Assembly: GCA_001543015.1 (NCBI GenBank)
Contig: LFLC01000057.1
Coordinates: 27,457 to 91,456 of the forward strand
Reading direction: 5' to 3'
DNA length: 64,000 nucleotides
Source: Nitrosopumilus sp. LS_AOA
GTDB taxonomy: Archaea > Thermoproteota > Nitrososphaeria > Nitrososphaerales > Nitrosopumilaceae
Position numbers and translations under genes: made by a program. The notes beneath the pieces were generated by a model, which did no database searches, had not been told where the DNA came from, and saw only the letters and a list, made by a program, of their open reading frames with translations. Positions 1 through 17,700 of this stretch are shown here, in pieces. Numbering within the stretch: position 1 is the first letter of the stretch; each line of letters starts with the position of its first letter.

Positions 1-715
1 CAAGTAAAGTTAGGACACTTTTGAAACTAATCTTCATTTGTCCTTGGTTTGCAAGGGCCACATAGTGATTGATTAGAGACCTAAAATGCCATTTGTTGAA
101 AAAATAATCTCCTACTTTGAACTTGTAGTCAAATGCATCTAACTTTTCAAGATATGATTTTGCTTCATCTATATCCTGAGTAATATTTCCTGATTTGTCA
201 AATATTTGTGAATCAAATAGAATATCACCAATTCCTACTAGAATTGCTACTCTCTCAAACATTTGAGTTGGTGATTCAATAATCTCACTTTTTCCGTTTC
301 TGAAAAGATATCGTGATGCCAATACTCTAAGACAATTCAAATCAAACTTTTTAGAAACTGGATCAAGGATCTTTAAATTCAAGACGTTCTTTTTCTGGTC
401 TCTTAATTTTCTTCTCTCATGTCTGTAAACAATGTATGCTTTTGCAATGTCACTATTGCCACTATCAATCAAAGTTGATTCTACAATATCTTGAATGTCT
501 TCAACTGTAGGTGTTCTAGTACTAGTAAATCCTTGTTCCACTAATTTGTTAACTACATTTTCTGCTAATTGATCAGCTAGGCCACGATCTGCTTTAGATG
601 TGGCTGCCAATGCCCTAAATATGGCATTTGAAATTTTATCTTTATTAAATGCCGTTACTGCGCCACTGCGCTTTCGAATATCAATTATGGTATTTTCTAT
701 TTGTGAATTGTCCAT
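1..715 (-). CDS. nrdJ: Ribonucleotide reductase large chain, N-terminal part (ATP-cone plus start of catalytic domain). Probably class II/B12-dependent. The gene continues past the left edge.
   Basis: Absent from the ORF track because there is no stop in the window. My minus-strand translation from ATG (complement of 713-715) gives MDNSQIENTIIDIRKRSGAVTAFNKDKISNAIFRALAATSKADRGLADQLAENVVNKLVEQG...AKAYIVYRHERRKLR, an ATP-cone. It continues LNCLRVLASRYLFRNGKSEIIESPTQMFERVA, a typical RNR N-terminal motif. The class assignment is inference. Confidence 0.75.
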   Translation of the reverse strand, partial: MDNSQIENTIIDIRKRSGAVTAFNKDKISNAIFRALAATSKADRGLADQLAENVVNKLVEQGFTSTRTPTVEDIQDIVESTLIDSGNSDIAKAYIVYRHERRKLRDQKKNVLNLKILDPVSKKFDLNCLRVLASRYLFRNGKSEIIESPTQMFERVAILVGIGDILFDSQIFDKSGNITQDIDEAKSYLEKLDAFDYKFKVGDYFFNKWHFRSLINHYVALANQGQMKISFKSVLTLL

Positions 716-750
716 TATAATCTCCCCGACATAGTTATGATCAGTATGGG

Positions 751-757
751 TATAAAT
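751..757 (-). promoter_or_regulatory. Candidate TATA box for nrdJ
   Basis: The minus strand reads ATTTATA about 36 nt upstream of the nrdJ ATG. That spacing fits an archaeal promoter with a short 5' UTR. Confidence 0.3.
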
Positions 758-833
758 GATTCTGCAGTTTTTTCTTAAAGTTCAGTGCAATAATGTTGAC
801 ACCACTTCTATGAAGTTCATAACGGCATAACAT

Positions 834-895
834 TGATCGTTGTTAACGATGATCGCATCATCCGAATTTGATCAAAAAGTTTTGAAAAATGATCG
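834..895. promoter_or_regulatory. Array of TGATC(A/G) motifs plus inverted repeat ATCGTT-N3-AACGAT (836-850) upstream of nrdJ. Candidate operator.
   Basis: TGATCG occurs at 834, 850 and 890, and TGATCA at 869, with another TGATCA at 738. Spacings between the last four are 16, 19 and 21 bp. Related TGATCA (3133) and TGATCT (3143) lie upstream of the 920-3082 gene. Confidence 0.35.
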
Positions 896-919
896 TTACT
901 AGTTTTTTATTTATGAATT

Positions 920-3082
920 TCAGACAATGTATGGTGATTTACATTTTGGACATTTGTCCTCAAATGGTTCATCTTTAAAACCACATTCACCACAAATTGC
1001 AGTTATTCTAACAGGCTTGAATGATGATGTTAGTTGAGATGTTTTCTCAATTGATTTTTTGATTTCATCAACCTTTGCATTTTTGTCAATATTTAATGCA
1101 ACAAATAATCCTCCATTGAGTAATTTTGAGAGTTTGTTACATTCAGCAATAGGTTCGCTTTTATTAGTATAATCAGAAACATCAGAGGCATTAATTATCA
1201 CACCTTCAGAATAAGAATCGCCTTCCATGGAGTTAAGAGAAGAATTTTTGCCATATTTCTCACCATCTAGTTTTGCAAAACGGGTTGAACTCTCAGTTTC
1301 AGTCATGCAAATAGCAACAGAATCACCTAATTCTTTGCCTTTTTTAGCACCCACATCAACTGCAGTTTCAATGACTTTGTGAAGAATAGCACGACCTTCT
1401 TTATTGTCTTTGTATCCTAAAATATTAAAAATTGCCTCTTTGAGACCTACTAAATTTATGACAAGTGAGACAGAACTTCTTTGCATGTATTGAGTATTTT
1501 TTGCAAGAATCGGATTTAGTCCTCGTCTTGTAAGATCAGAAATATCTTTTTTTCTTAATGCCATAGATACTAAAGCAGGTTTCATTAATAATGCGAGTCT
1601 TGCTCTAAAGTAAGTTTCATCTTTATTTGATTCAAATGCAAGTCTTGGAAGATTAATAGAAACAGATTGTAAATTAATTGAAAGTGGACCTGTAGTTTTT
1701 GTAGAACCATTTGTAACTCCTAAACTTGACATTTGACCTTTAGCAAACATTACTTTGCCACCAATAGAAATTATTTCAGCCACTGATGCTGAAACATCAG
1801 TTATTTTTCCTTTCTCAGTATCTATAATTAAACCAATTTTTGGAATTGGTGTAATCTTTGTATAATTTTTGTATGCATTAATTATTGCATTGATTATTTT
1901 TGTATCAAATCCTAGTTGTAGTCTGATTGATACGTTTGTATTTTTCATATTGAATTTTGAAGAAGTAGATGCAGTTGAAAATGCATTTGATAATTTTTGT
2001 TCAAGTTCAGGAAGAGATTTTGAATGTTTTACAAACAAGGGGATTAAACCATCAAGGACAACTTCTTGTGAAGCTTCTTTTGAGAGTAGAGATATTATTA
2101 TTGATAGTGCACTTGTAATCTCATCTAATTGTTTTGATGCAGGGATTCTTGAAACATCAAGGTATTTTCCACCAAGATTAATTCCATCATCAATTAATTC
2201 TTTAACATTGACAAATATTGTATCAGGAATCATAGACCAAATTCCAGGATTTGAAATATGCAAATCTCCAGAAAGATGAGAATCTGCTACATCTTTTGGT
2301 AGTGTGTTTGTAAGAAGATGTTCAGCAAATACTTTCTGACCAGTGTGAAACAATAAACCTTCAGCACCATTATCTACATTATCTAAATTGGAAATCATTT
2401 CCTGTACATCAAAAACAGGCAATCCTAGGCGTGCTAATTTATTACGATATTCCTCATGACCGTGCTCTAAAAGGACAGAATTGACCATTTCTCGGATAAG
2501 TGCGCCTGTAAGATAGGTAGTCTGATATTTGTAAATTCTATTTTCAACTTCTTCAGTAATTTTTTGTGCTAATTCTAATGGAAGACTACCTTCACGAACT
2601 AGTGATTGAATAATTTTATGAGAATTAAATTCTTCAATGGATTCATGTGATGTTCTAACATACATTTTTCCACTTTCAATAATTGATCTTTCTTCTATTT
2701 GTCTTGCTAAACTTAAAACCAATTTTCCAAGATTTGTAATTGTGTAACGTCTTTCAGATTTGTTTAGAGCAACAAGGGATTGTCTTAATAATTTTCTCAA
2801 ATGATATGCAAATTTTCCACTTTCTTTTTTTGATTTGAATCCAGCAAGTGATTTTAATTCAGAATATGTTAATGGACCTTTAGAATTTAGAATTCTGAGA
2901 ATATCAATTCTGTTTGGACTAGCCATTACAGAGAAAATCATCCTAACACGTTTTGATGTAGATTGTAAAATTCCACCTCTATTTGATGATTCATCATCAC
3001 CATCAAAGTCTGAGTCCAAATCAGAGTCTAGATCTGAATCTACATCAGTATCCATTTCTAATTCTTCTGGATTCAATTTCAT
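920..3082 (-). CDS. wHTH (ArsR-like) + ATP-cone + NrdD-like (class III RNR-like) domain protein ending at the Zn ribbon, with no glycyl-radical tail. Putative nucleotide-sensing regulator.
   Basis: 720 aa. Acidic N-terminus DTDVDSDLDSDLDSDFDGDDE. wHTH: NRIDILRILNSKGPLTYSELKSLAG...RYTITNLG. ATP-cone: YVRTSHESIEEFNSHKIIQSLVREG...IREMVNSVLLEHGHEEYRNKLA. NrdD-like motifs: HLSGDLHISNPG, SVSINLPRLAF and TETESSTRFAKLDGEKYG. The C-terminus is CGECGx11CPKC followed by only 5 residues. Confidence 0.8.
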   Translation of the reverse strand: MKLNPEELEMDTDVDSDLDSDLDSDFDGDDESSNRGGILQSTSKRVRMIFSVMASPNRIDILRILNSKGPLTYSELKSLAGFKSKKESGKFAYHLRKLLRQSLVALNKSERRYTITNLGKLVLSLARQIEERSIIESGKMYVRTSHESIEEFNSHKIIQSLVREGSLPLELAQKITEEVENRIYKYQTTYLTGALIREMVNSVLLEHGHEEYRNKLARLGLPVFDVQEMISNLDNVDNGAEGLLFHTGQKVFAEHLLTNTLPKDVADSHLSGDLHISNPGIWSMIPDTIFVNVKELIDDGINLGGKYLDVSRIPASKQLDEITSALSIIISLLSKEASQEVVLDGLIPLFVKHSKSLPELEQKLSNAFSTASTSSKFNMKNTNVSIRLQLGFDTKIINAIINAYKNYTKITPIPKIGLIIDTEKGKITDVSASVAEIISIGGKVMFAKGQMSSLGVTNGSTKTTGPLSINLQSVSINLPRLAFESNKDETYFRARLALLMKPALVSMALRKKDISDLTRRGLNPILAKNTQYMQRSSVSLVINLVGLKEAIFNILGYKDNKEGRAILHKVIETAVDVGAKKGKELGDSVAICMTETESSTRFAKLDGEKYGKNSSLNSMEGDSYSEGVIINASDVSDYTNKSEPIAECNKLSKLLNGGLFVALNIDKNAKVDEIKKSIEKTSQLTSSFKPVRITAICGECGFKDEPFEDKCPKCKSPYIV

Positions 3083-3227
3083 GAATTTTATGAAGAAAAG
3101 GAGTAATTAAGACTTATGACTATATGATTAATTGATCATTTATGATCTAATTTGAGATTTGTTAATTTTTTATACAAAAATTAGGATAAATTTTTTAAAA
3201 ATTAAAAATAGATCCTTGATTTGAAGA

Positions 3228-3389
3228 TCATTTTTCTTGAACATCAAGTGAAAACTCAGATGTAGAAAGCTTTTGTCCACATGATGGACATTTACCGCCA
3301 TAAGGATTCATAACATCTTTGATAGATTTTAACATCTTCATGGTTGTGATCTTTTCACCACATTTACCACATGTAATTTCTACTGACAT
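3228..3389 (-). CDS. Small zinc-ribbon protein (53 aa)
   Basis: Manual translation gives MSVEITCGKCGEKITTMKMLKSIKDVMNPYGGKCPSCGQKLSTSEFSLDVQEK, with a CxxC...CxxC pair. It is too short for the ORF track. Confidence 0.45.
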   Translation of the reverse strand: MSVEITCGKCGEKITTMKMLKSIKDVMNPYGGKCPSCGQKLSTSEFSLDVQEK

Positions 3390-3459
3390 AAGAATTACAA
3401 GATGTGTAAAATTATTAAGAATCGATTTTGATTTTTTTTAATAATTCAAGCAAATTATT

Positions 3460-3825
3460 TTACTGCTTTTCAATGATGATTCCACGATCATCAAAACCAG
3501 TAATTTTTGCTTTTGTTCCAACAGGGAGATCATCGGGGGTGGCAATATTTGGCATAAATCCTGAAATTCTCAAATCTGTATTATCGACTTGAAGTACAAC
3601 AAAGGCATATGGTGTGTATTTTTCAAAGCCTGCAGGAGCCACAGTAATGATGGTATACGTGGCAACTGAGCCTGTACCCTCTAAAACATTATCATCAAAA
3701 CCCTTACTACCACATTTTGAGCAATAATATGCTGTAGAAAGATGAAGATGACCACAACTAGTACATTTGTGAGCTAAGAGTTTACCTTGTTTGGCATATT
3801 CAATAAGTTGTTCCTCAATTGTCAT
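3460..3825 (-). CDS. DUF35 OB-fold/zinc-ribbon protein, the small partner of archaeal thiolase
   Basis: MTIEEQLIEYAKQGKLLAHKCTSCGHLHLSTAYYCSKCGS then an OB-fold region. I chose the start at the internal Met (3825), immediately after the thiolase stop (3827-3829). Confidence 0.85.
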   Translation of the reverse strand: MTIEEQLIEYAKQGKLLAHKCTSCGHLHLSTAYYCSKCGSKGFDDNVLEGTGSVATYTIITVAPAGFEKYTPYAFVVLQVDNTDLRISGFMPNIATPDDLPVGTKAKITGFDDRGIIIEKQ

Positions 3826-3826
3826 T

Positions 3827-4990
3827 TTATACACTCTGGAATATATGAACAGCACAACTTGCACCAGTTGCACCAAAATTATGAGTTAAACCAATTTTTG
3901 CATCTTTAACAGTTCTTGCACCAGCTTTTCCAGTTAATTGATCAAATACTTCTACTACTTGTCCAACACCTGTTGCACCTATTGGATGTCCTTTTGATTT
4001 AAGACCACCTGATGGATTAATTGAAATGTCAGAATTTAATTTAGTTCTACCTTCACGAACAGCTTGAACTCCTTGTCCTTTATCAAAGAATCCCAAGTCT
4101 TCAGTGTCAACTATTTCTGCAATTGTAAAACAATCATGGACTTCTGCAAAGTCAATATCTTTTGCAGTAATACCTGCCATTTTGTAAGCATCTGCTACTG
4201 CAATCTTTGTACTAGGAATTGTTGTTAAATGTTCACGTCCTTGTAATGCAGCTGGTGAACCACCTCTGCCAGAACCAATTACTTCAATATAGTCTCCACC
4301 ATTTTCTTTTGCAAACTTTTCAGAACAAAGAATAACAGAACTTGCACCATCAGAGAATGGACAGCAATCAAAAAGTTTTAGTGGACTTGCAACCACTGCA
4401 GAATTCATTACATCATCAATAGTAATTTTCTTTTGCATGTGAGCTTTTGGATTAAGAATTCCATTGTCATGATTTTTTACTGCAACTGCTGCAAAATCTT
4501 CTTCAGTTGCATCAAACTCGGTCAAGTAAGCTCTTGCCATAGATGCAAACAAACCTGGAAATGATGCACCTGCCTGACCTTCATAGAAAAAGTCTGAACA
4601 ATATGCAAAGTATGTTGTTGTCCATTCAGTTCCAGTGTGAGTTACTTTTTCAACACCGGTAACAAGAAGACAATCATAAAATCCGGCTGCAACATTAGCA
4701 TATGCCTCTCTAAAAGATACAGAACCACTGCCACATGCAGACTCTATTGTTAATGATGGTTTTTCTGGAATTCCTAATCTACTCATTAAAACAGGACCAA
4801 GATGTACCTGCTTATCAGCAACTCCAAAAACGTTTGAAATGTAAGATGCTTGAATGTCTTTAGGAGAAATTTTTGCACTTTCTATGGCTGAAACTGATGC
4901 CTGAGTAGTGATATCAGCAATACTTTCACTTAATTTTCCATATTTAGTGCTACCAGCACCAAGAACACAAACCTTTTCCACAAATGTCAC
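3827..4990 (-). CDS. Archaeal-type thiolase (acetyl-CoA C-acetyltransferase / acetoacetyl-CoA beta-ketothiolase)
   Basis: 387 aa. It carries the thiolase fold motifs ESACGSGS (active-site Cys), NPSGGLKSKGHPIGATG and HNFGATGASCAV. Confidence 0.9.
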   Translation of the reverse strand: MTFVEKVCVLGAGSTKYGKLSESIADITTQASVSAIESAKISPKDIQASYISNVFGVADKQVHLGPVLMSRLGIPEKPSLTIESACGSGSVSFREAYANVAAGFYDCLLVTGVEKVTHTGTEWTTTYFAYCSDFFYEGQAGASFPGLFASMARAYLTEFDATEEDFAAVAVKNHDNGILNPKAHMQKKITIDDVMNSAVVASPLKLFDCCPFSDGASSVILCSEKFAKENGGDYIEVIGSGRGGSPAALQGREHLTTIPSTKIAVADAYKMAGITAKDIDFAEVHDCFTIAEIVDTEDLGFFDKGQGVQAVREGRTKLNSDISINPSGGLKSKGHPIGATGVGQVVEVFDQLTGKAGARTVKDAKIGLTHNFGATGASCAVHIFQSV

Positions 4991-7382: not shown

Positions 7383-8942
7383 TTAGTTTTGAATTTGTAA
7401 AATTCCTTGTTTTATTAAAAATTCTAATCCTTGAACAAATGTCTCATCATCAATGGAGCCATCAGCCCACCAACCTACATTATTTCTAATCCAATCAGGA
7501 ATTTCCTGTGATTCAGAACTTTCTTGTTGTGTTTGAGGAATTATAATAATATTATTATTTATCAAATATTCAATTCCTTTGATGAAAGTATTATCATCAA
7601 TTTGTTGCTCTGACCACCATAATGCATTATTTCTAATCCAATCAGGAATGGGAATGGAGTTATTTTGAGTGATTCTATTAATTACAATAGGAATTTTAGT
7701 TGTAGCAAGATGGTTATCATCTAAATTTTTGAAATTTAGATAAACTATACCTGAAATATCTTTAGGAATAAAAAACTCGGCAGTATTATGTTCTTCTTTT
7801 GAATCAGTACTAGTTCCACTTTGTTCAAAAATTACTATATCATTTTGAGTAATAGAAAAGTCATAAATTGCAGCAATTGGTCTATTCTTTAAGAAAATAT
7901 CTGTAACATCAAATAATATTTTTGCATTTGAATTAGATTTTAGATTCTCTGGTTCCCAAGATACAAGAATTCTAAACTGCCCATTTTCTGTAACAGAACT
8001 CAAATGAGAATAATCACGGTCAGGTTTTATTATAAAATCCATTTCATCAGTACTGGGATTACTTTGAAAAATATTCAATAATTCTTTTTGATAAATAATA
8101 AAATGTACTATCCGTTCATGAGAGATAAAATCATCAATGTTTACAACATCTTTAGATAATTCAATTCCATTTACATACATTGTAAAACCAGATACTAGTA
8201 AATCACCAAAGTCTTTTGAAATTTGTAATTCTTCATGGACAACAGATGTTTGATTAATGTTTGATTGACTCCATTCAAAAGGCATGGAAAAACTAATCTC
8301 TTTTGAATTTGAATCATATTCAAAATCTGAAATTTCATCATAATACGAAATGGTGTAAATATTTTGTTCCCCAAAATTTGGATCAATAATACTATGTTTT
8401 GATGTTTGAGCAATTGAAATTCCTGCATTAAAGACTAGAGGTTTATCTAATTTTTTGGAATATCCATCTGCAGTAAGCACACTAATGTCAAATTTGTACA
8501 AACCACCCTCACTTAGTTTTGGTCCAATTACATGAACTATCCTACTTTCAAGTCCTAATAATGAACCAAAAAAATCATCACTGTTATTATCATCATCAAT
8601 TATTATTGGAATTGTATCTTCTGATACAAAATTAAAAACTATGAAACCATTATCTGCTTGAAATTCTTGCTCAAAAAGAAATGTTTCTCCACGTTCAGAA
8701 GTAATTAAAAAAGTTACATCTCGTAAGGTAATTTTTGAATCAAAATCAATTAATGAAATAGAAATTTGTTGATCATCATTAGTTTCAGGATTGTTTTGTG
8801 AAGATGAAACTTCCAAAGTAACTAATCGACCATCTAATTCAACGGGTGGAAAAGTTTCACTACCAAAGCCATGACCATATACATGATCTATTCCAAAAAA
8901 TAGAAAAAATATCAAAGATGTAAATAAAAATAAATTTTTCAA
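7383..8942 (-). CDS. Secreted protein, paralog 1 of an uncharacterised family. Mature N-terminus HGFG, with two C-terminal W-rich ~35-aa repeats.
   Basis: The ORF track starts it at 9035. An in-frame TTG at 8940-8942 gives a clean signal peptide MKNLFLFTSLIFFLFFGIDHVYG|HGFG and removes the overlap with 8944-9150. Motifs shared with 9184-10899 and 19278-21014: GGLYKF, FEYDSNSKEISFSMPFEWS, VVHEE, MYVNGIE and RIVHF. Confidence 0.7.
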   Translation of the reverse strand: MKNLFLFTSLIFFLFFGIDHVYGHGFGSETFPPVELDGRLVTLEVSSSQNNPETNDDQQISISLIDFDSKITLRDVTFLITSERGETFLFEQEFQADNGFIVFNFVSEDTIPIIIDDDNNSDDFFGSLLGLESRIVHVIGPKLSEGGLYKFDISVLTADGYSKKLDKPLVFNAGISIAQTSKHSIIDPNFGEQNIYTISYYDEISDFEYDSNSKEISFSMPFEWSQSNINQTSVVHEELQISKDFGDLLVSGFTMYVNGIELSKDVVNIDDFISHERIVHFIIYQKELLNIFQSNPSTDEMDFIIKPDRDYSHLSSVTENGQFRILVSWEPENLKSNSNAKILFDVTDIFLKNRPIAAIYDFSITQNDIVIFEQSGTSTDSKEEHNTAEFFIPKDISGIVYLNFKNLDDNHLATTKIPIVINRITQNNSIPIPDWIRNNALWWSEQQIDDNTFIKGIEYLINNNIIIIPQTQQESSESQEIPDWIRNNVGWWADGSIDDETFVQGLEFLIKQGILQIQN

Positions 8943-8943
8943 A

Positions 8944-9150
8944 CTATGTCCACTTGTTTGGATCTTTTTTACGAATTTCTTTTCCGTCAATAGTGATTTG
9001 ATCTTTTTCTTCAAAAACAGTATGCCATTTTCCATTATTTGGAAAAATCTTGTTCATTTCTTTGACTTTGTTATTAGTTGGTGCTTTGTTCATCAAAGCT
9101 CCCCATTTCATGTTTGGAACTTTTGGCATAATGTCATTGATATCTTTCAT
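8944..9150 (-). CDS. Hypothetical small hydrophilic protein (68 aa)
   Basis: An open frame between the two paralogs on the same strand. I recognise no motifs, so it may be non-coding. Confidence 0.25.
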   Translation of the reverse strand: MKDINDIMPKVPNMKWGALMNKAPTNNKVKEMNKIFPNNGKWHTVFEEKDQITIDGKEIRKKDPNKWT

Positions 9151-14017: not shown

Positions 14018-14836
14018 ATGTCATTTGAAATTCTAACATACAGCTTTATGCATAGAGCATTAATTTCTGGAATTGCAATTGCAATTCTTTGTTCAGTTGT
14101 TGGCTTATTTTTAGTATTGAGACGTTATTCATTATTTGGTGATGCAATAGCTCATTCATCATTTGGTGGAATTGCATTAGGTTTGCTAGCAGGTGTTTAT
14201 CCATTGTTGACTGCTTATGGTGTTTCAATAATTAGTGCATTAATAATTACAAAAATCAAGGACAAATACAATATTTCAGGCGATGCATCAATTGCTGTAC
14301 TTTTATCCTCAGGAATAGCAGTTGGGCTCGTAATTATTGGTTTTTCAGGTGGATTTACGATTGATATCTTTAGTTTTCTATTTGGAAGTATTCTTTTAGT
14401 TAGTGTAGATGATACTATTCTAATTTTATCATTAACTGGAATCATTCTAATTGTAATTTTATTATTGTATAGACAAATTCTTTATTCCACATTTAATGAA
14501 GAACAAGCTAAAGTTAGTGGTATCCCTGTTGAAAAAATTAATTATTTGATTGTATTTATGGCAGGAATTACTGTGGTGACAGCAGTTCAACTTGTAGGTG
14601 TTTTGTTAATTTCAGCCCTATTTGTAATTCCAAATGTTACTGCAATAATGTATGGAAAAGGTTTCAAACAGACAGCAATAATCTCAATGAGTTTCTCTGT
14701 TTTTTCTGTTGTTGCAGGAATTTTAATTTCATATATTTTTGACATTACTCCTGCAGGAACCATTGTTTTATTATCAATTGGATTACTTGGAGGAACAATG
14801 GGGATAAAGTCAGCAGGACTATTATCTAAGAATTAA
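14018..14836 (+). CDS. Metal ABC importer permease (ZnuB-like)
   Basis: 272 aa and polytopic. It follows the ATPase gene directly, and the ABC-3 family pattern is present (GDAIAHSSFGG). Confidence 0.85.
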   Translation: MSFEILTYSFMHRALISGIAIAILCSVVGLFLVLRRYSLFGDAIAHSSFGGIALGLLAGVYPLLTAYGVSIISALIITKIKDKYNISGDASIAVLLSSGIAVGLVIIGFSGGFTIDIFSFLFGSILLVSVDDTILILSLTGIILIVILLLYRQILYSTFNEEQAKVSGIPVEKINYLIVFMAGITVVTAVQLVGVLLISALFVIPNVTAIMYGKGFKQTAIISMSFSVFSVVAGILISYIFDITPAGTIVLLSIGLLGGTMGIKSAGLLSKN

Positions 14837-17606
14837 TTAAAGAGTTTAGTCTTCTTTTATCTTGAACACTTTTTACATAAAACAATGATGTTGCAATAAT
14901 TCCTAATGCAACTAGTGGTGATGCAATCTCTGTATATTTTAATTCAAAATTACTAGTTGTTTGTATTTGTGATGGAATAACTGGAATTTCTGTTATTTTT
15001 ATTGTTCCAAGCTTGTTTGATTGCTGTTCTACAAACCATACATTATCATTTCCATCTGTTGTCATGAATTGTACAAATGATGTTTCAGTTGGAATTGGAA
15101 TCTCGATCAAATTATTGTTATCTGGATCATATACTCCGATATTATCTACTGTGTGTTCTGCAAACCAAATATTCCCATATTTGTCAAGTGTCATTCCAAA
15201 TGGTAATGCATCTTTATTTGGTACTGAAATTTTCTCAAATGTCTCTAAAACGGGGTTAAATTTGGTAATTGCTGAGCCTGTATGTTCTGCAATCCATAAA
15301 TTTCCATCATTATCAAACATTAATGCTTCAGGGGACTGAAGTGGAGAGTCACTTGAGAATTGAGTAATTTGATTATTTTCAGGATTAATGAATCCAATTT
15401 TACCTGTACCTGATGTAGAATACCATATTTTTCCATCATCATTTACTGTTAAAGCAAATGGAAATGACTCTCTTTCTAATTGTATTACTTCAAATGTATC
15501 TAATTCTGGTAAATATTTTACAATACTATCTTTGTTTATGATACTTATCCAAATATTCCCATCAAAATCTGCTTGAATAAAGATTGGAGCGTTATCGGAT
15601 ATTGTAGGATCTAGATTTGGAATTGTTTTTGTTGTAATTTGTTTATTTTCTGGATCAAAGAAACCAATTTGATTTCTTGGAGTATCTACAAACCATATTT
15701 TTCCACTATTATCTTGTGTTAGAAACATTGTAGCTAGACCATCAAATGAATATGAAGTAAATTCTTGTGAATCAAGTGAAAATTGCCACAATCGTGGAGA
15801 TGATGCATCACTTAACCAAATAGAATTTTTTCCATCATACAATGGGAAAAGAGGTTTAGCATCTTTTGGTAATTCATATTCAATTATTTGAGTTTGAATG
15901 TTTACTAGTTGTGGTTTTATCAGTAAATTCATTATTTTTGATTCGTTAGCATTCTCAGTTCTTTGTGCTTCAACTTCTAATAACCAAACTCCAGAAAATC
16001 CAAATGTTATTTCACCTTGAAATTCAGTTGGTCTGTTCTCACTTTGTTTGATTAAATTCATTGGGATTTCAATTGGAGAGATATTTTTTAATGGATTTGA
16101 AATTTTTACTTTAATTTGATTTGAATCTGAAAGTGGTTTATTTTCAAAGTCACTCACTTTAACTAGAATTGTATTTACACCACTTGAAAATGGTGAAATT
16201 TCAATGCCAAATTTTGCTTTTTCAGTAAATTCGATAGTCTTAAAACCATAGATTATTTCTTGTGCTTCAACTTTTTGAATTTCTCCTGCTGGAAGTGTTC
16301 CATTAGTTAGTAATGCCACTACTCCTAATAGAGCAATTCCCAATACTACATCAACTTTGAGTGATCTCTTTAGTTTTCTATGAACAGAAATTTTTCCTGA
16401 CTGAATATTTTTTTCTGCATTTTTTTGTATTCGAAACTGGAAAAATCCACCAAACCCAATTATTATTGCAGCAATTGCAATTTTTAAAATAATTAATTGG
16501 CCATAAACGGATTCTGTAATTAATCCTACATCACTTTCTAAGAACCACATTAGAGTTGGTCCTGTAATTAATACAACACCAATTGCAATAATAAAAGCAA
16601 TTGAAAATCTTGGAATAAGTAATAAACTCATTTTCTCTCGTTTTGATTCTTTTAACTGTGCAAATGTTGGTAATAATGTGAAAACAAAATAGAATATTCC
16701 ACCTATCCATACTGCTGAAACTAAATTATGTATGTAATCTAAAACAAGTGCAGGTGTTTCTCCACTAGCTGCACCATGTCCTATTAAACTTGAAGTTCCA
16801 ATTAATACAAGCATTGCTACTAACATTGATATTTGATTTTTCTTTGATAGAACTTTTTTCCTATTCAATCCAAACCAAATTCCCAGTAAAATTACCGTAA
16901 TTGTCATTCTAATGATCCAAATGTTTCCAAAATCGGTTTGAATTGCATCAAATACTGATGCTTCTAATCTAATAGATTGAATAGCAATCATCAAAATATT
17001 TGAAATAAAAATTAAAATTAGTCCTATACCTGTAAGTGTCATAAATTTTCTATGATGGAATGTTTCTATCTTGTCTAATTCTTCTCGAATTAATTGCTTG
17101 TTTTGTGTACCCCAAATTATTAGAGATGAAATTATTACTCCTAAAACGATTGTTTGACCAACAAGACCTGGAAACCTAGCTCCTGCTTCGGGTAAAAATA
17201 CTATTTCTGATGGTCTTTCAAATTCTAATGATGCAGAATCTACTATAGCATTACCTATTGCAAACAAGAATGCATCAGGAACTAAATGCCCATCAACTTT
17301 TGAGAGAACTTTAGTTGTTACAGTATAAACTCCGTCTTCTAATGGAGGAGTTGTAACAATAAGAGATAATTCATCTTCAAAGTAATCGGTATCTTTGTTA
17401 TCTATTTGATTTCCATTATTATCAAGTACTTTTACTTCACTAAAGTTTATGTCAATTGGTTCTGAAAAAAATATGATTACTTCTGAAGTACCCGTTGGAG
17501 CATTAGATACTAAGCTTGGAATAGTTTCTTCTGTAAATGGATGTGCATATACAAGTGGAATTGATATTGATGAAAATACAAGTAATAGTATTAGCAATCC
17601 TCTCAT
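14826..17606 (-). CDS. CopC-CopD fusion extended by a YtkA-like Ig domain, a Vgb/NHL-like beta-propeller and a C-terminal TM anchor
   Basis: 926 aa. The signal peptide is ...IPLVYA|HPFTEE. The CopC domain includes DGVYTVTTKVLSKVDGHLV. About 8 TM segments form the CopD-like region. Repeated propeller blades include IWFVDTPRNQIGFFDPENKQIT, IWYSTSGTGKIGFINPENNQIT, LWIAEHTGSAITKFNP, IWFAEHTVDNIGVYDPDNNNL and VWFVEQQSNKLGTI. Confidence 0.85.
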   Translation of the reverse strand: MRGLLILLLVFSSISIPLVYAHPFTEETIPSLVSNAPTGTSEVIIFFSEPIDINFSEVKVLDNNGNQIDNKDTDYFEDELSLIVTTPPLEDGVYTVTTKVLSKVDGHLVPDAFLFAIGNAIVDSASLEFERPSEIVFLPEAGARFPGLVGQTIVLGVIISSLIIWGTQNKQLIREELDKIETFHHRKFMTLTGIGLILIFISNILMIAIQSIRLEASVFDAIQTDFGNIWIIRMTITVILLGIWFGLNRKKVLSKKNQISMLVAMLVLIGTSSLIGHGAASGETPALVLDYIHNLVSAVWIGGIFYFVFTLLPTFAQLKESKREKMSLLLIPRFSIAFIIAIGVVLITGPTLMWFLESDVGLITESVYGQLIILKIAIAAIIIGFGGFFQFRIQKNAEKNIQSGKISVHRKLKRSLKVDVVLGIALLGVVALLTNGTLPAGEIQKVEAQEIIYGFKTIEFTEKAKFGIEISPFSSGVNTILVKVSDFENKPLSDSNQIKVKISNPLKNISPIEIPMNLIKQSENRPTEFQGEITFGFSGVWLLEVEAQRTENANESKIMNLLIKPQLVNIQTQIIEYELPKDAKPLFPLYDGKNSIWLSDASSPRLWQFSLDSQEFTSYSFDGLATMFLTQDNSGKIWFVDTPRNQIGFFDPENKQITTKTIPNLDPTISDNAPIFIQADFDGNIWISIINKDSIVKYLPELDTFEVIQLERESFPFALTVNDDGKIWYSTSGTGKIGFINPENNQITQFSSDSPLQSPEALMFDNDGNLWIAEHTGSAITKFNPVLETFEKISVPNKDALPFGMTLDKYGNIWFAEHTVDNIGVYDPDNNNLIEIPIPTETSFVQFMTTDGNDNVWFVEQQSNKLGTIKITEIPVIPSQIQTTSNFELKYTEIASPLVALGIIATSLFYVKSVQDKRRLNSLINS

Positions 17607-17700
17607 TTACTCTTACGATCATCTTTGATAATTTAAACAGTTTATCAATAATTCGAGATTTATCCCATTTCACGTAAAGATAATAATATGTAATTTCCAA

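Follow-up and report, generated by a model that had tools for sequence, protein, structure and literature searches.

What is a protein that resembles an anaerobic, class III ribonucleotide reductase (RNR; NrdD) doing directly upstream of a class II RNR gene? The question is raised by a stretch of 64,000 nucleotides from Nitrosopumilus sp. LS_AOA (contig LFLC01000057.1, positions 27,457 to 91,456; hereafter the window), which is AT-rich with ~31% G+C. An open reading frame (ORF) on its minus strand (920..3082) encodes a protein of 720 residues, which we call the regulator for its proposed role. The protein cannot be a class III RNR. With a probability of about 0.6 we propose that it is a nucleotide-responsive transcription regulator of nrd genes.

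Domain architecture and loss of radical chemistry

Four Pfam domains were found above their cut-offs: HTH_20 (32.4 bits versus 27), DUF7347 (40.7 versus 27.6, residues 49-123), the ATP-cone PF03477 (33.8 versus 25.8, residues 140-212) and NRDD PF13597 (93.1 versus 26.2, E = 2e-26). The NRDD match ends at position 529 of the 562 positions of the model, hence the regulator has nothing that corresponds to the glycyl-radical end of the model. An AlphaFold2 (AF2) model, computed from the alignment of our family profile A1 (68 sequences), reached a predicted local distance difference test (pLDDT) score of 89 and a predicted template modelling (pTM) score of 0.81. In this model residues 38-136 adopt the ArsR/SmtB topology, and the best 36 Foldseek matches in the PDB are all NrdD structures (E = 1e-20 to 1e-12). 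The profile itself recovers the solved NrdD structures with E = 1e-39 to 5e-30, and its winged helix matches HlyU and NolR. The putative recognition helix is GKFAYHLRKL, in which G89, F91, Y93 and H94 are invariant or nearly so throughout the family. Thus, the four parts named in the original prediction (acidic tail, winged helix, ATP-cone and NrdD-like core) are borne out by the Pfam scores and the AF2 model. The acidic tail is restricted to close Nitrosopumilus relatives, where 23-109 residues stand ahead of an RMIFSVM anchor that precedes the winged helix. A role of this tail as a DNA-mimicking, auto-inhibitory segment is pure speculation.

The NrdD motifs quoted in the original prediction are all present in the sequence: HLSGDLHISNPG at residue 269, KGQMSSL at 448, SVSINLPRLAF at 473 and TETESSTRFAKLDGEKYG at 594. 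The protein contains six cysteines, C592 and C648 besides the four of the C-terminal Zn ribbon (C697, C700, C711 and C714), so that there are indeed just two outside the ribbon. Ribbon and truncation before a glycyl-radical loop had also been recognized correctly; the spacing of the ribbon, however, is CxxC-x10-CxxC instead of x11, and six residues rather than five follow the last cysteine up to the stop codon (920-922).

The residues of class III chemistry were traced by aligning the profile to the NrdD structures from Streptococcus thermophilus (9d3x) and Prevotella copri (8p23). According to PMC11226230, the relevant residues of P. copri NrdD are Cys416 in the finger loop, Cys171 on strand beta-1, Asn435, Gly711 and Tyr712 (native numbering; the numbering of the structure chain is higher by 4). 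The thiyl motif MGCR of both structures aligns to K448-G449-Q450-M451, which places Gln450 at the position of Cys416. The beta-1 cysteine falls into an insert within the Cys-free PDTIF stretch and has no equivalent, the first cysteine of the regulator being residue 592. Asn435 is kept as Asn470. Gly711 and Tyr712 lack a counterpart, because the regulator stops before that position; true NrdDs run on past the ribbon with SRVTGYY, which contains the glycyl-radical loop that the regulator lacks. The NxN flap of true NrdD (ANENAN) is absent from the regulators as well, and their flap region contains no conserved residues. In keeping with these losses, the regulator reaches 85.9 bits with the NrdD equivalog TIGR02487, the cut-off being 326.35, and with the other NrdD equivalogs of NCBIfam it is also far below theirs. 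Since every residue needed for glycyl/thiyl radical chemistry is lacking, the regulator cannot be a class III RNR. The original prediction, which had recognized KGQMSSL at the position of E. coli MGCRSFL and had excluded a radical enzyme, is confirmed by Gln450 and the missing glycyl domain, i.e. by the loss of both radical sites.

A different register, obtained with phmmer against the PDB, places KGQMSSLG onto KGRMNSIG of Thermotoga maritima NrdD. It was rejected on the basis of the family-profile alignment and of the loop lengths; judged by this alignment, the E. coli-type MGCR register is the correct one for KGQM.

The losses extend across the family. Among 184 regulators the column of the radical glycine contains Ala in 94, Ser in 24, a gap in 22 and Gly in 13, and the following tyrosine is replaced by Lys in 97. 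The beta-1 cysteine column never contains Cys, and Glu is found there in 107 sequences. The finger-loop cysteine is retained in a TGCR motif by ~75 of 116 members from Bathyarchaeia (e.g. P0315, P0326 and P0344), even though the radical glycine is Ala, the next tyrosine Lys and the beta-1 cysteine Glu. Redox sensing may possibly account for this retention.

Descent from archaeal NrdD and conservation of the family

The ATP-cone of the regulator is divergent. BLASTP found no match between it and the cone of the adjacent nrdJ product, so that hhalign was needed, which aligned it to canonical cones with a probability of 93%. In this alignment v-x-K-R-d-G of the canonical cones falls onto V142-R143-T144-S145. 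Thus, Thr144-Ser145 stand in place of the canonical Lys-Arg pair, and the replacement (VRTS) is family-wide. Compared with canonical cones the regulator has lost both basic residues, compared with its own NrdD paralogue (R-R-S) only one. Because the Lys-Arg pair is absent, the ligand of the cone is uncertain.

The origin of cone and core is best seen in Bathyarchaeia, where a regulator and the true NrdD encoded two genes downstream share 27% identity over 714 residues, cone included. The true enzyme has RPFCQDW, YQCCAY, SRVTGYY and the ANENAN flap; its cone reads VRRSDG, followed by SGPLIRELVN..LL...YRN.LTRVG.PVYD. Two parts of the regulator hold the residues that are invariant in the family: the recognition helix (GKFAYHL) and the segment formed by cone and linker (VRTS...EEF..KI...YLTAPLIRE.VN...EEYRHKLTRLGLPVYDV). 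Since cone and linker are homologous to those of archaeal NrdD, the most conserved stretch of the regulator was inherited from this enzyme. The true Bathyarchaeal NrdDs (L081 10461-13002; L082 10571-13093; L084 8400-10919) are preceded by a glutaredoxin/NrdH-like gene and have a CC pair in the finger loop (YQCCAY) and a sub-threshold ATP-cone; they may represent a thiol-dependent class III subtype. A further true NrdD with ATP-cone, P0256 (1206 residues), surfaced among the weak matches of the regulator and carries a LAGLIDADG intein in its core.

A word-indexed search yielded 4,203 homologues, and the top 120 all share the same four Pfam domains with lengths of 697-786 residues. An exhaustive search of representatives at 50% identity gave 1,233 matches, 183 of them at E<1e-30, and members of the family reach down to ~25% identity. 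Named members come from Nitrosopumilus, Nitrosarchaeum, Candidatus Bathyarchaeia, Aigarchaeota (Caldarchaeum, Pelearchaeum), Odinarchaeia and "Ranarchaeia". A close relative is encoded in 196 of the species-representative genomes; the 80 best loci all come from Nitrosopumilaceae and include complete chromosomes.

Purifying selection on the regulator is strong and is strongest in winged helix and cone. The ratio of nonsynonymous to synonymous substitutions (dN/dS; NG86, against 73-74 orthologues) is 0.086 overall, with 0.011 in the winged helix, 0.040 in the ATP-cone, about 0.10 in the core and 0.07 in the Zn ribbon. The short C-terminus with 6-16 residues past the ribbon is common to the whole Nitrososphaeria branch. 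In the Aigarchaeotal members (566-589 residues) the core is almost undetectable and the ribbon is absent, with winged helix and cone intact. Judged by these sequences, the family looks like a graded decay, from members with the cysteine kept and the glycine lost, over members with the cysteine lost and the tail truncated, to members with an almost undetectable core. Such a series looks like an enzyme module in decay whose remaining role is non-catalytic.

Linkage to RNR genes and conserved promoter elements

The gene 204 bp downstream of the regulator, on the same strand, begins with an ATP-cone and a Ribonuc_red_lgN domain and runs off the window. Its orthologue in L001, with a 99.6% identical N-terminus, is an NrdJ_Z protein of 882 residues (TIGR02504, 700.8 bits versus a cut-off of 400). 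Therefore, the neighbour in the window is a class II nrdJ, as the original prediction had stated. In Nitrosopumilaceae nrdJ follows on the same strand at a distance of 205-650 bp in 78 of the 79 informative loci, the remaining one (L045) being rearranged. In more distant relatives with 50% (L087) and 42% identity (L088) the gene after the regulator likewise encodes an RNR, which has cone, lgN and lgC domains; in L086 the regulator is not linked in this way: it is followed by pyrB/pyrI, and no RNR is present.

On three independent contigs from Bathyarchaeia the gene order is regulator, glutaredoxin-like gene, true NrdD. We classified the ORFs of 58 Bathyarchaeal metagenome loci with at least 1.5 kb of downstream sequence. 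In 29 a true NrdD or an NrdJ/A-like gene lies within 2.5 kb on the same strand, 21 of these with a glutaredoxin gene in between. The linkage to RNR, as surveyed here, is thus nearly invariant in Nitrosopumilaceae and found at about half of the Bathyarchaeal loci, and it is not universal. The RNR beside the regulator is of class III in anaerobic Bathyarchaeia and of class II in ammonia oxidisers. The adjacency of regulator and RNR outlasted a change of RNR class or arose anew after it, as functional coupling predicts. In the 64-kb window itself tblastn found neither a true NrdD nor a glutaredoxin partner; NrdG was not searched for.

The genes pyrB/pyrI (OTCace, PyrI) adjoin the regulator or its RNR partner in Bathyarchaeia, relatives of ammonia-oxidising archaea (AOA) and Aigarchaeota (L081, L082, L084, L086, L087, L170). 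Their recurrence in several lineages indicates that part of the arrangement is old synteny. Genes for NAC, a PUA/TGT_C2 protein and an HTH_3 protein recur near the regulator in both Bathyarchaeia and Aigarchaeota, and a thiolase and DUF35/OB pair (3460-4990 in the window) recurs in L087 and L170.

In Nitrosopumilaceae the spacer between regulator and nrdJ is rich in GATC, with 16.9 copies per kb versus 4.2 per kb in the surrounding loci. The spacer of the window contains five copies in 204 bp versus 2.97 per kb (Poisson estimate ~4e-4). On random placement, a cluster of four GATC in 70 bp arises somewhere in 64 kb in 18% of cases; hence the cluster alone is weak evidence, and the argument rests on position and conservation. 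Aligned with one another, 73 spacers are on average 72% identical, and three boxes are conserved at more than 90%: ttaCGATCAttttt, tttttGATCAgttt and tgCGATCAtcgt. They lie at +25, +46 and +65 past the stop codon, 19-21 bp apart, in most of the 79 loci, and a promoter-proximal GATCA is found in many of the genomes. Further conserved blocks of the spacer are the palindrome TATGAAnTTCATA, GGTGTCAA, the TATA-like TTTATA and GGGGAG. Upstream of the regulator itself, a TATA-like CTTAATTA is located ~26 nt before the ATG, which suggests a leaderless mRNA.

A position weight matrix (PWM) built from the three distal GATCA boxes was not specific in the window and was discarded. Its best match outside the training sites (17610-17628) lies just upstream of a gene for a CopC-CopD-beta-propeller (Vgb_lyase/SGL-like) fusion of 926 residues (14826-17606, minus strand) and is probably due to chance. 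Two close GATC pairs (10026/10047 and 15105/15125) are inside coding regions. Over the whole window GATCA (158 versus 206 expected) and TGATCA (25 versus 45 expected) are under-represented, in contrast to the clustering at the nrd spacers; restriction-modification pressure or methylation may be responsible for the depletion. No Rfam family matched positions 500-3500 at E<=1 or any part of the window at the gathering threshold, and no tRNA was found in the window.

A different element is present in Bathyarchaeia. The sequence TACA[GAC]AATTTTA[TA]A occurs 30 times on both strands of 670 kb, and all 30 occurrences are in the spacer after the regulator gene. To compare linked with unlinked loci, a looser classification was used, a downstream glutaredoxin gene or RNR sufficing for linkage; the element was found in 27 of 37 loci linked in this way and in none of 28 unlinked ones. 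It belongs to a module of ~75 bp consisting of cTGTnAATTT, 13 nt, ATACAgAATTTTAwA and then TTCTAAaAAATTtAAg. The module occurs in both orientations and is inverted as a whole relative to the genes in 8 loci, which argues against a plain core promoter. Across lineages, a "GTCAAA..TTATT" element can be made out by eye in the AOA consensus and at the loci L086 and L088, but it is no more than a lead: GTCAWAWN{1,4}TTATT has 0 matches in the window, and GTGTCAA is exact in just 25% of the AOA spacers. The Nitrosopumilus nrdJ promoter (GGTGTCAA...CAGAATcaTTTATAC) has the same order as the Bathyarchaeal module with a longer spacer, a lead and not a result. Judged from the alignments, dedicated cis-elements are present at nrd promoters linked to the regulator, and they are candidate operators.

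The coordinates of the relevant features are given in Table 1. The 53-residue ORF directly upstream of the regulator has just weak, sub-threshold zinc-ribbon matches in Pfam. Elsewhere in the window, a protein of 550 residues (7383-9035, minus strand) has an N-terminal hydrophobic segment and, near its C-terminus, two copies of a ~40-residue motif, IPDWIRNN..WW....IDD.TF..G.E.LI.

Table 1. Features of the regulator locus and candidate elements in Bathyarchaeia. Positions refer to the window unless a locus is named.
Feature	Position	Strand	Details
nrdJ, 5' part	1..715	-	class II B12-dependent RNR with its own canonical ATP-cone, IRKRSG; runs off window
Regulator-nrdJ intergenic region	716..919	-	GATCA boxes 890-894, 869-874, 850-854, 834-838; proximal box 738-743
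Further elements in the intergenic region	716..919	-	palindrome TATGAAcTTCATA 809-821; GGTGTCAACATTATTG 788-803; GGGGAG just before ATG at 715
TATA-like TTTATA	751-756	-	41 nt before nrdJ ATG
NrdD-type C-terminal Zn ribbon, CxxC-x10-CxxC	941..994	-	C697, C700 and C711 invariant throughout the family, C714 almost so
Catalytically dead NrdD-like alpha/beta-barrel core, residues 227-690	1013..2404	-	Pfam NRDD, family profile, AF2, Foldseek
Gln450 codon (thiyl-radical Cys position of NrdD; P. copri Cys416)	1733..1735	-	profile alignment, MGCR onto KGQM
Divergent ATP-cone and linker, residues 138-226	2405..2671	-	VRTS...EEF..KI ... YLTxxLIRExVN..L.E.G.EEYR.KL.RLGLPV.DV.; Pfam and hhalign
ArsR/SmtB-type winged helix-turn-helix, residues 40-130	2693..2965	-	Pfam HTH_20 and DUF7347; AF2 topology a1-a2-a3-aR-b-b-a5
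Acidic disordered tail, residues 1-36	2975..3082	-	15 D/E, DxDLD repeats; pLDDT <50
Regulator promoter region	3083..3227	-	GATCA boxes 3143-3147, 3133-3137; >90% conserved block TAGTCATAAGTCTTAATTACTCC 3100-3122
Zn-ribbon ORF of 53 residues, two CxxC pairs	3228..3389	-	MSVEITCGKCGEK...KCPSCGQK...; directly upstream of regulator; coding sequence conserved in 79 Nitrosopumilaceae loci
Bathyarchaeal ~75-bp module	L081 10224-10460; L082 10308-10570; L084 8311-8399; 24 further loci		spacer before nrdH-nrdD
Bathyarchaeal promoter sequence, candidate for Bathyarchaeal regulator			TACAGAATTTTATA

Proposed function, alternatives and significance

The original prediction had proposed an RNR-derived pseudoenzyme repurposed as a regulator of dNTP supply. 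The pseudoenzyme, the fusion, the linkage to RNR and conserved promoter elements are all found; universal linkage is not. Presumably, the NrdD-like core would keep the regulator dimeric, as in NrdD, and would thereby present two winged helices, which could bind the repeated elements at the nrdJ promoter and at that of the regulator itself. The cone would take up an adenine nucleotide, most likely dATP versus ATP, and (d)NTPs might perhaps also bind to remnants of the allosteric or active sites of RNR in the core. Nucleotide binding would shift the conformation or the oligomeric state, and with it DNA binding, so that nrd transcription would track the dNTP pool in a feedback control of dNTP synthesis. 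If the protein is an nrd regulator, repression at high dATP is slightly favoured by analogy with NrdR.

The closest functional parallel is the bacterial RNR repressor NrdR, which consists of a Zn ribbon and an ATP-cone (Streptomyces coelicolor, 7P37 and 7P3F; PMC9110341). In both proteins a DNA-binding domain is fused to an ATP-cone; as for NrdR, the gene is located next to nrd genes, repeated candidate boxes occur at nrd and at its own promoter, and the proposed logic is a nucleotide-dependent control of RNR transcription. The differences are considerable. NrdR has an N-terminal Zn ribbon with an RRRR motif, whereas the N-terminus of the regulator is an ArsR-type winged helix. The regulator carries in addition a dead NrdD core of ~500 residues with a C-terminal NrdD-type ribbon, its sole ribbon; its cone lacks the canonical Lys-Arg and was inherited, with the linker, from archaeal NrdD; and its candidate boxes are spaced otherwise than NrdR boxes, which are three helical turns apart. 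By this comparison the regulator does not belong to the NrdR family; it would be an archaeal functional analogue of independent origin.

In sequence and structure the best match is NrdD (T4 1H78, T. maritima 4COI/4U3E, P. copri 8P23, S. thermophilus 9D3X), with which the regulator shares the ATP-cone, the 10-stranded barrel fold, the NLPR and LAP motifs and the C-terminal CxxC...CxxC ribbon. Unlike NrdD, it lacks the thiyl cysteine, the beta-1 cysteine, the NxN flap and the glycyl-radical domain, falls far short of the equivalog cut-off, carries a winged helix in addition and, in the Nitrosopumilus lineage, accompanies a class II RNR. Fold and position of the recognition helix are the same as in the ArsR/SmtB regulators HlyU (3JTH) and NolR (4OMY), and Pfam signals for HTH_20 and HTH_5 are present. 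In contrast to ArsR metalloregulators, NF033788 scores 23.7 bits versus a cut-off of 55 and no metal site is evident; the fusion of the winged helix to a very large sensor module is a further difference. A conceptual parallel is offered by MocR/PdxR, in which an enzyme-like domain with lost or reduced catalysis serves as a ligand-sensing and dimerising module; there a winged helix-turn-helix is joined to an aminotransferase fold that is unrelated to the fold discussed here. A full-text literature search found no precedent for an RNR as the sensor of a transcription factor.

Several observations weigh against an nrd-specific regulator. DNA binding and ligand are both inferred from sequence. The cone lacks the Lys-Arg phosphate clamp of canonical cones and has VRTS at the place of VRRS in the true archaeal NrdD paralogue, and inner or degenerate RNR cones that bind nothing are described in PMC9669993. 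The region of the NrdD s-site and loop 2 falls into unaligned insert states of the family profile. Despite an invariant recognition helix, the candidate operators are not the same from lineage to lineage, and the GATCA-box PWM, not specific within the window, has a strong match upstream of the CopCD gene. The TATA box is downstream of most candidate sites, an arrangement that does not resemble a simple repressor and leaves activation or looping open. In addition, there is no RNR within ~4 kb in 29 of the 58 Bathyarchaeal loci and none within 6 kb at the Aigarchaeotal loci L170 and L171, at the Odinarchaeial locus L169 and at the P0160 locus (L083); linkage is also missing at the P0133 locus. 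Part of the adjacency could be inherited synteny.

The last of these observations also bear on a broader role, in which the protein regulates nucleotide and replication genes (e.g. pyrBI, dNTP-metabolism or replication genes) and RNR is one target among others or a lineage-specific one. Such a regulon would fit the position of pyrB/pyrI, which in Bathyarchaeia, AOA relatives and Aigarchaeota neighbour the regulator or its RNR partner, and the locus L170, where pyrB and the regulator are transcribed divergently and no RNR is close by. It would also fit the RFC or RadA genes near the regulator in L083 and L169 and the missing RNR at about half of the Bathyarchaeal loci and at all Aigarchaeotal and Odinarchaeial loci examined. 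We nevertheless consider this broader role unlikely, since adjacency to nrdJ is nearly invariant in Nitrosopumilaceae and since the composite Bathyarchaeal element is confined to the spacer before nrdH-nrdD and never occurs at loci without RNR. Less probable still is that the protein acts on RNR directly, as a dead paralogue that modulates the activity of the enzyme, either by binding to NrdJ or NrdD or by buffering nucleotides, with the winged helix for protein-protein contacts. Its core is a full-length NrdD paralogue under purifying selection (dN/dS about 0.10) and could heterodimerise with true NrdD in Bathyarchaeia; the neighbour in Nitrosopumilus, however, is nrdJ with its own canonical cone, the part under the strongest constraint is a winged helix of the ArsR-type DNA-binding fold, and the Aigarchaeotal members have winged helix and cone intact but hardly any recognisable core.

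An enzymatic function, either class III reduction with unrecognised residues or a new non-radical activity on nucleotides, is highly improbable. The finger-loop cysteine in ~75 of 116 Bathyarchaeal members and the retained Asn470 and Asn477 (NLPR motif) could be taken in its favour, and the radical cysteine of T. maritima NrdD can be displaced in a crystal structure, according to the title of PMC4493059. There is, however, no cysteine near the centre of the barrel, C592 and C648 being the only ones outside the ribbon; the glycyl-radical domain is absent, and most relatives that keep the tail have Ala or Ser for the radical glycine; the NxN flap is lost and the equivalog score is 85.9 versus 326; and the host belongs to an aerobe-type lineage that carries nrdJ. 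That the gene is an artefact, whether through mis-assembly, through a frameshift that fuses separate genes or as a pseudogene in decay, can be practically dismissed: the same four-domain architecture recurs in intact homologues on thousands of independent contigs, complete chromosomes included, the short C-terminus is shared across the Nitrososphaeria branch, and dN/dS is 0.086. A mis-assembly or frameshift, which the original prediction had named as fatal to it, is thus excluded.

We therefore retain the nucleotide-responsive nrd regulator as the preferred interpretation. More tentatively, the dead core may retain the allosteric wiring of RNR (the a-site of the cone, the specificity site at the dimer interface, perhaps the substrate pocket). 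With the allosteric code of RNR, the regulator would then sense the levels of the four dNTPs relative to one another, beyond dATP versus ATP, and would occupy the promoters of nrd and perhaps pyr genes accordingly; it would be an ancient regulator of DNA-precursor supply in TACK and Asgard archaea that pre-dates the swap from class III to class II RNR in ammonia oxidisers. We regard this extension as doubtful.

Members of the family are publicly named "anaerobic ribonucleoside-triphosphate reductase", "ArsR family transcriptional regulator" or "helix-turn-helix domain-containing protein". The first of these labels is wrong. It can falsely imply that aerobic ammonia-oxidising archaea make dNTPs anaerobically, and through it class III RNRs are counted twice in Bathyarchaeia. 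In a full-text literature search, with subscription journals outside its coverage, the architecture of the regulator, DUF7347 and an NrdD-like protein of ammonia-oxidising archaea were undescribed. NrdR is stated to be rare in archaea (PMC9110341), and how RNR transcription is controlled in archaea is largely unknown. The family described here is a concrete, widespread and testable candidate for this control. If the proposed function is correct, it would set a precedent, as the first case in which an RNR has been put to new use as a pseudoenzyme sensor.

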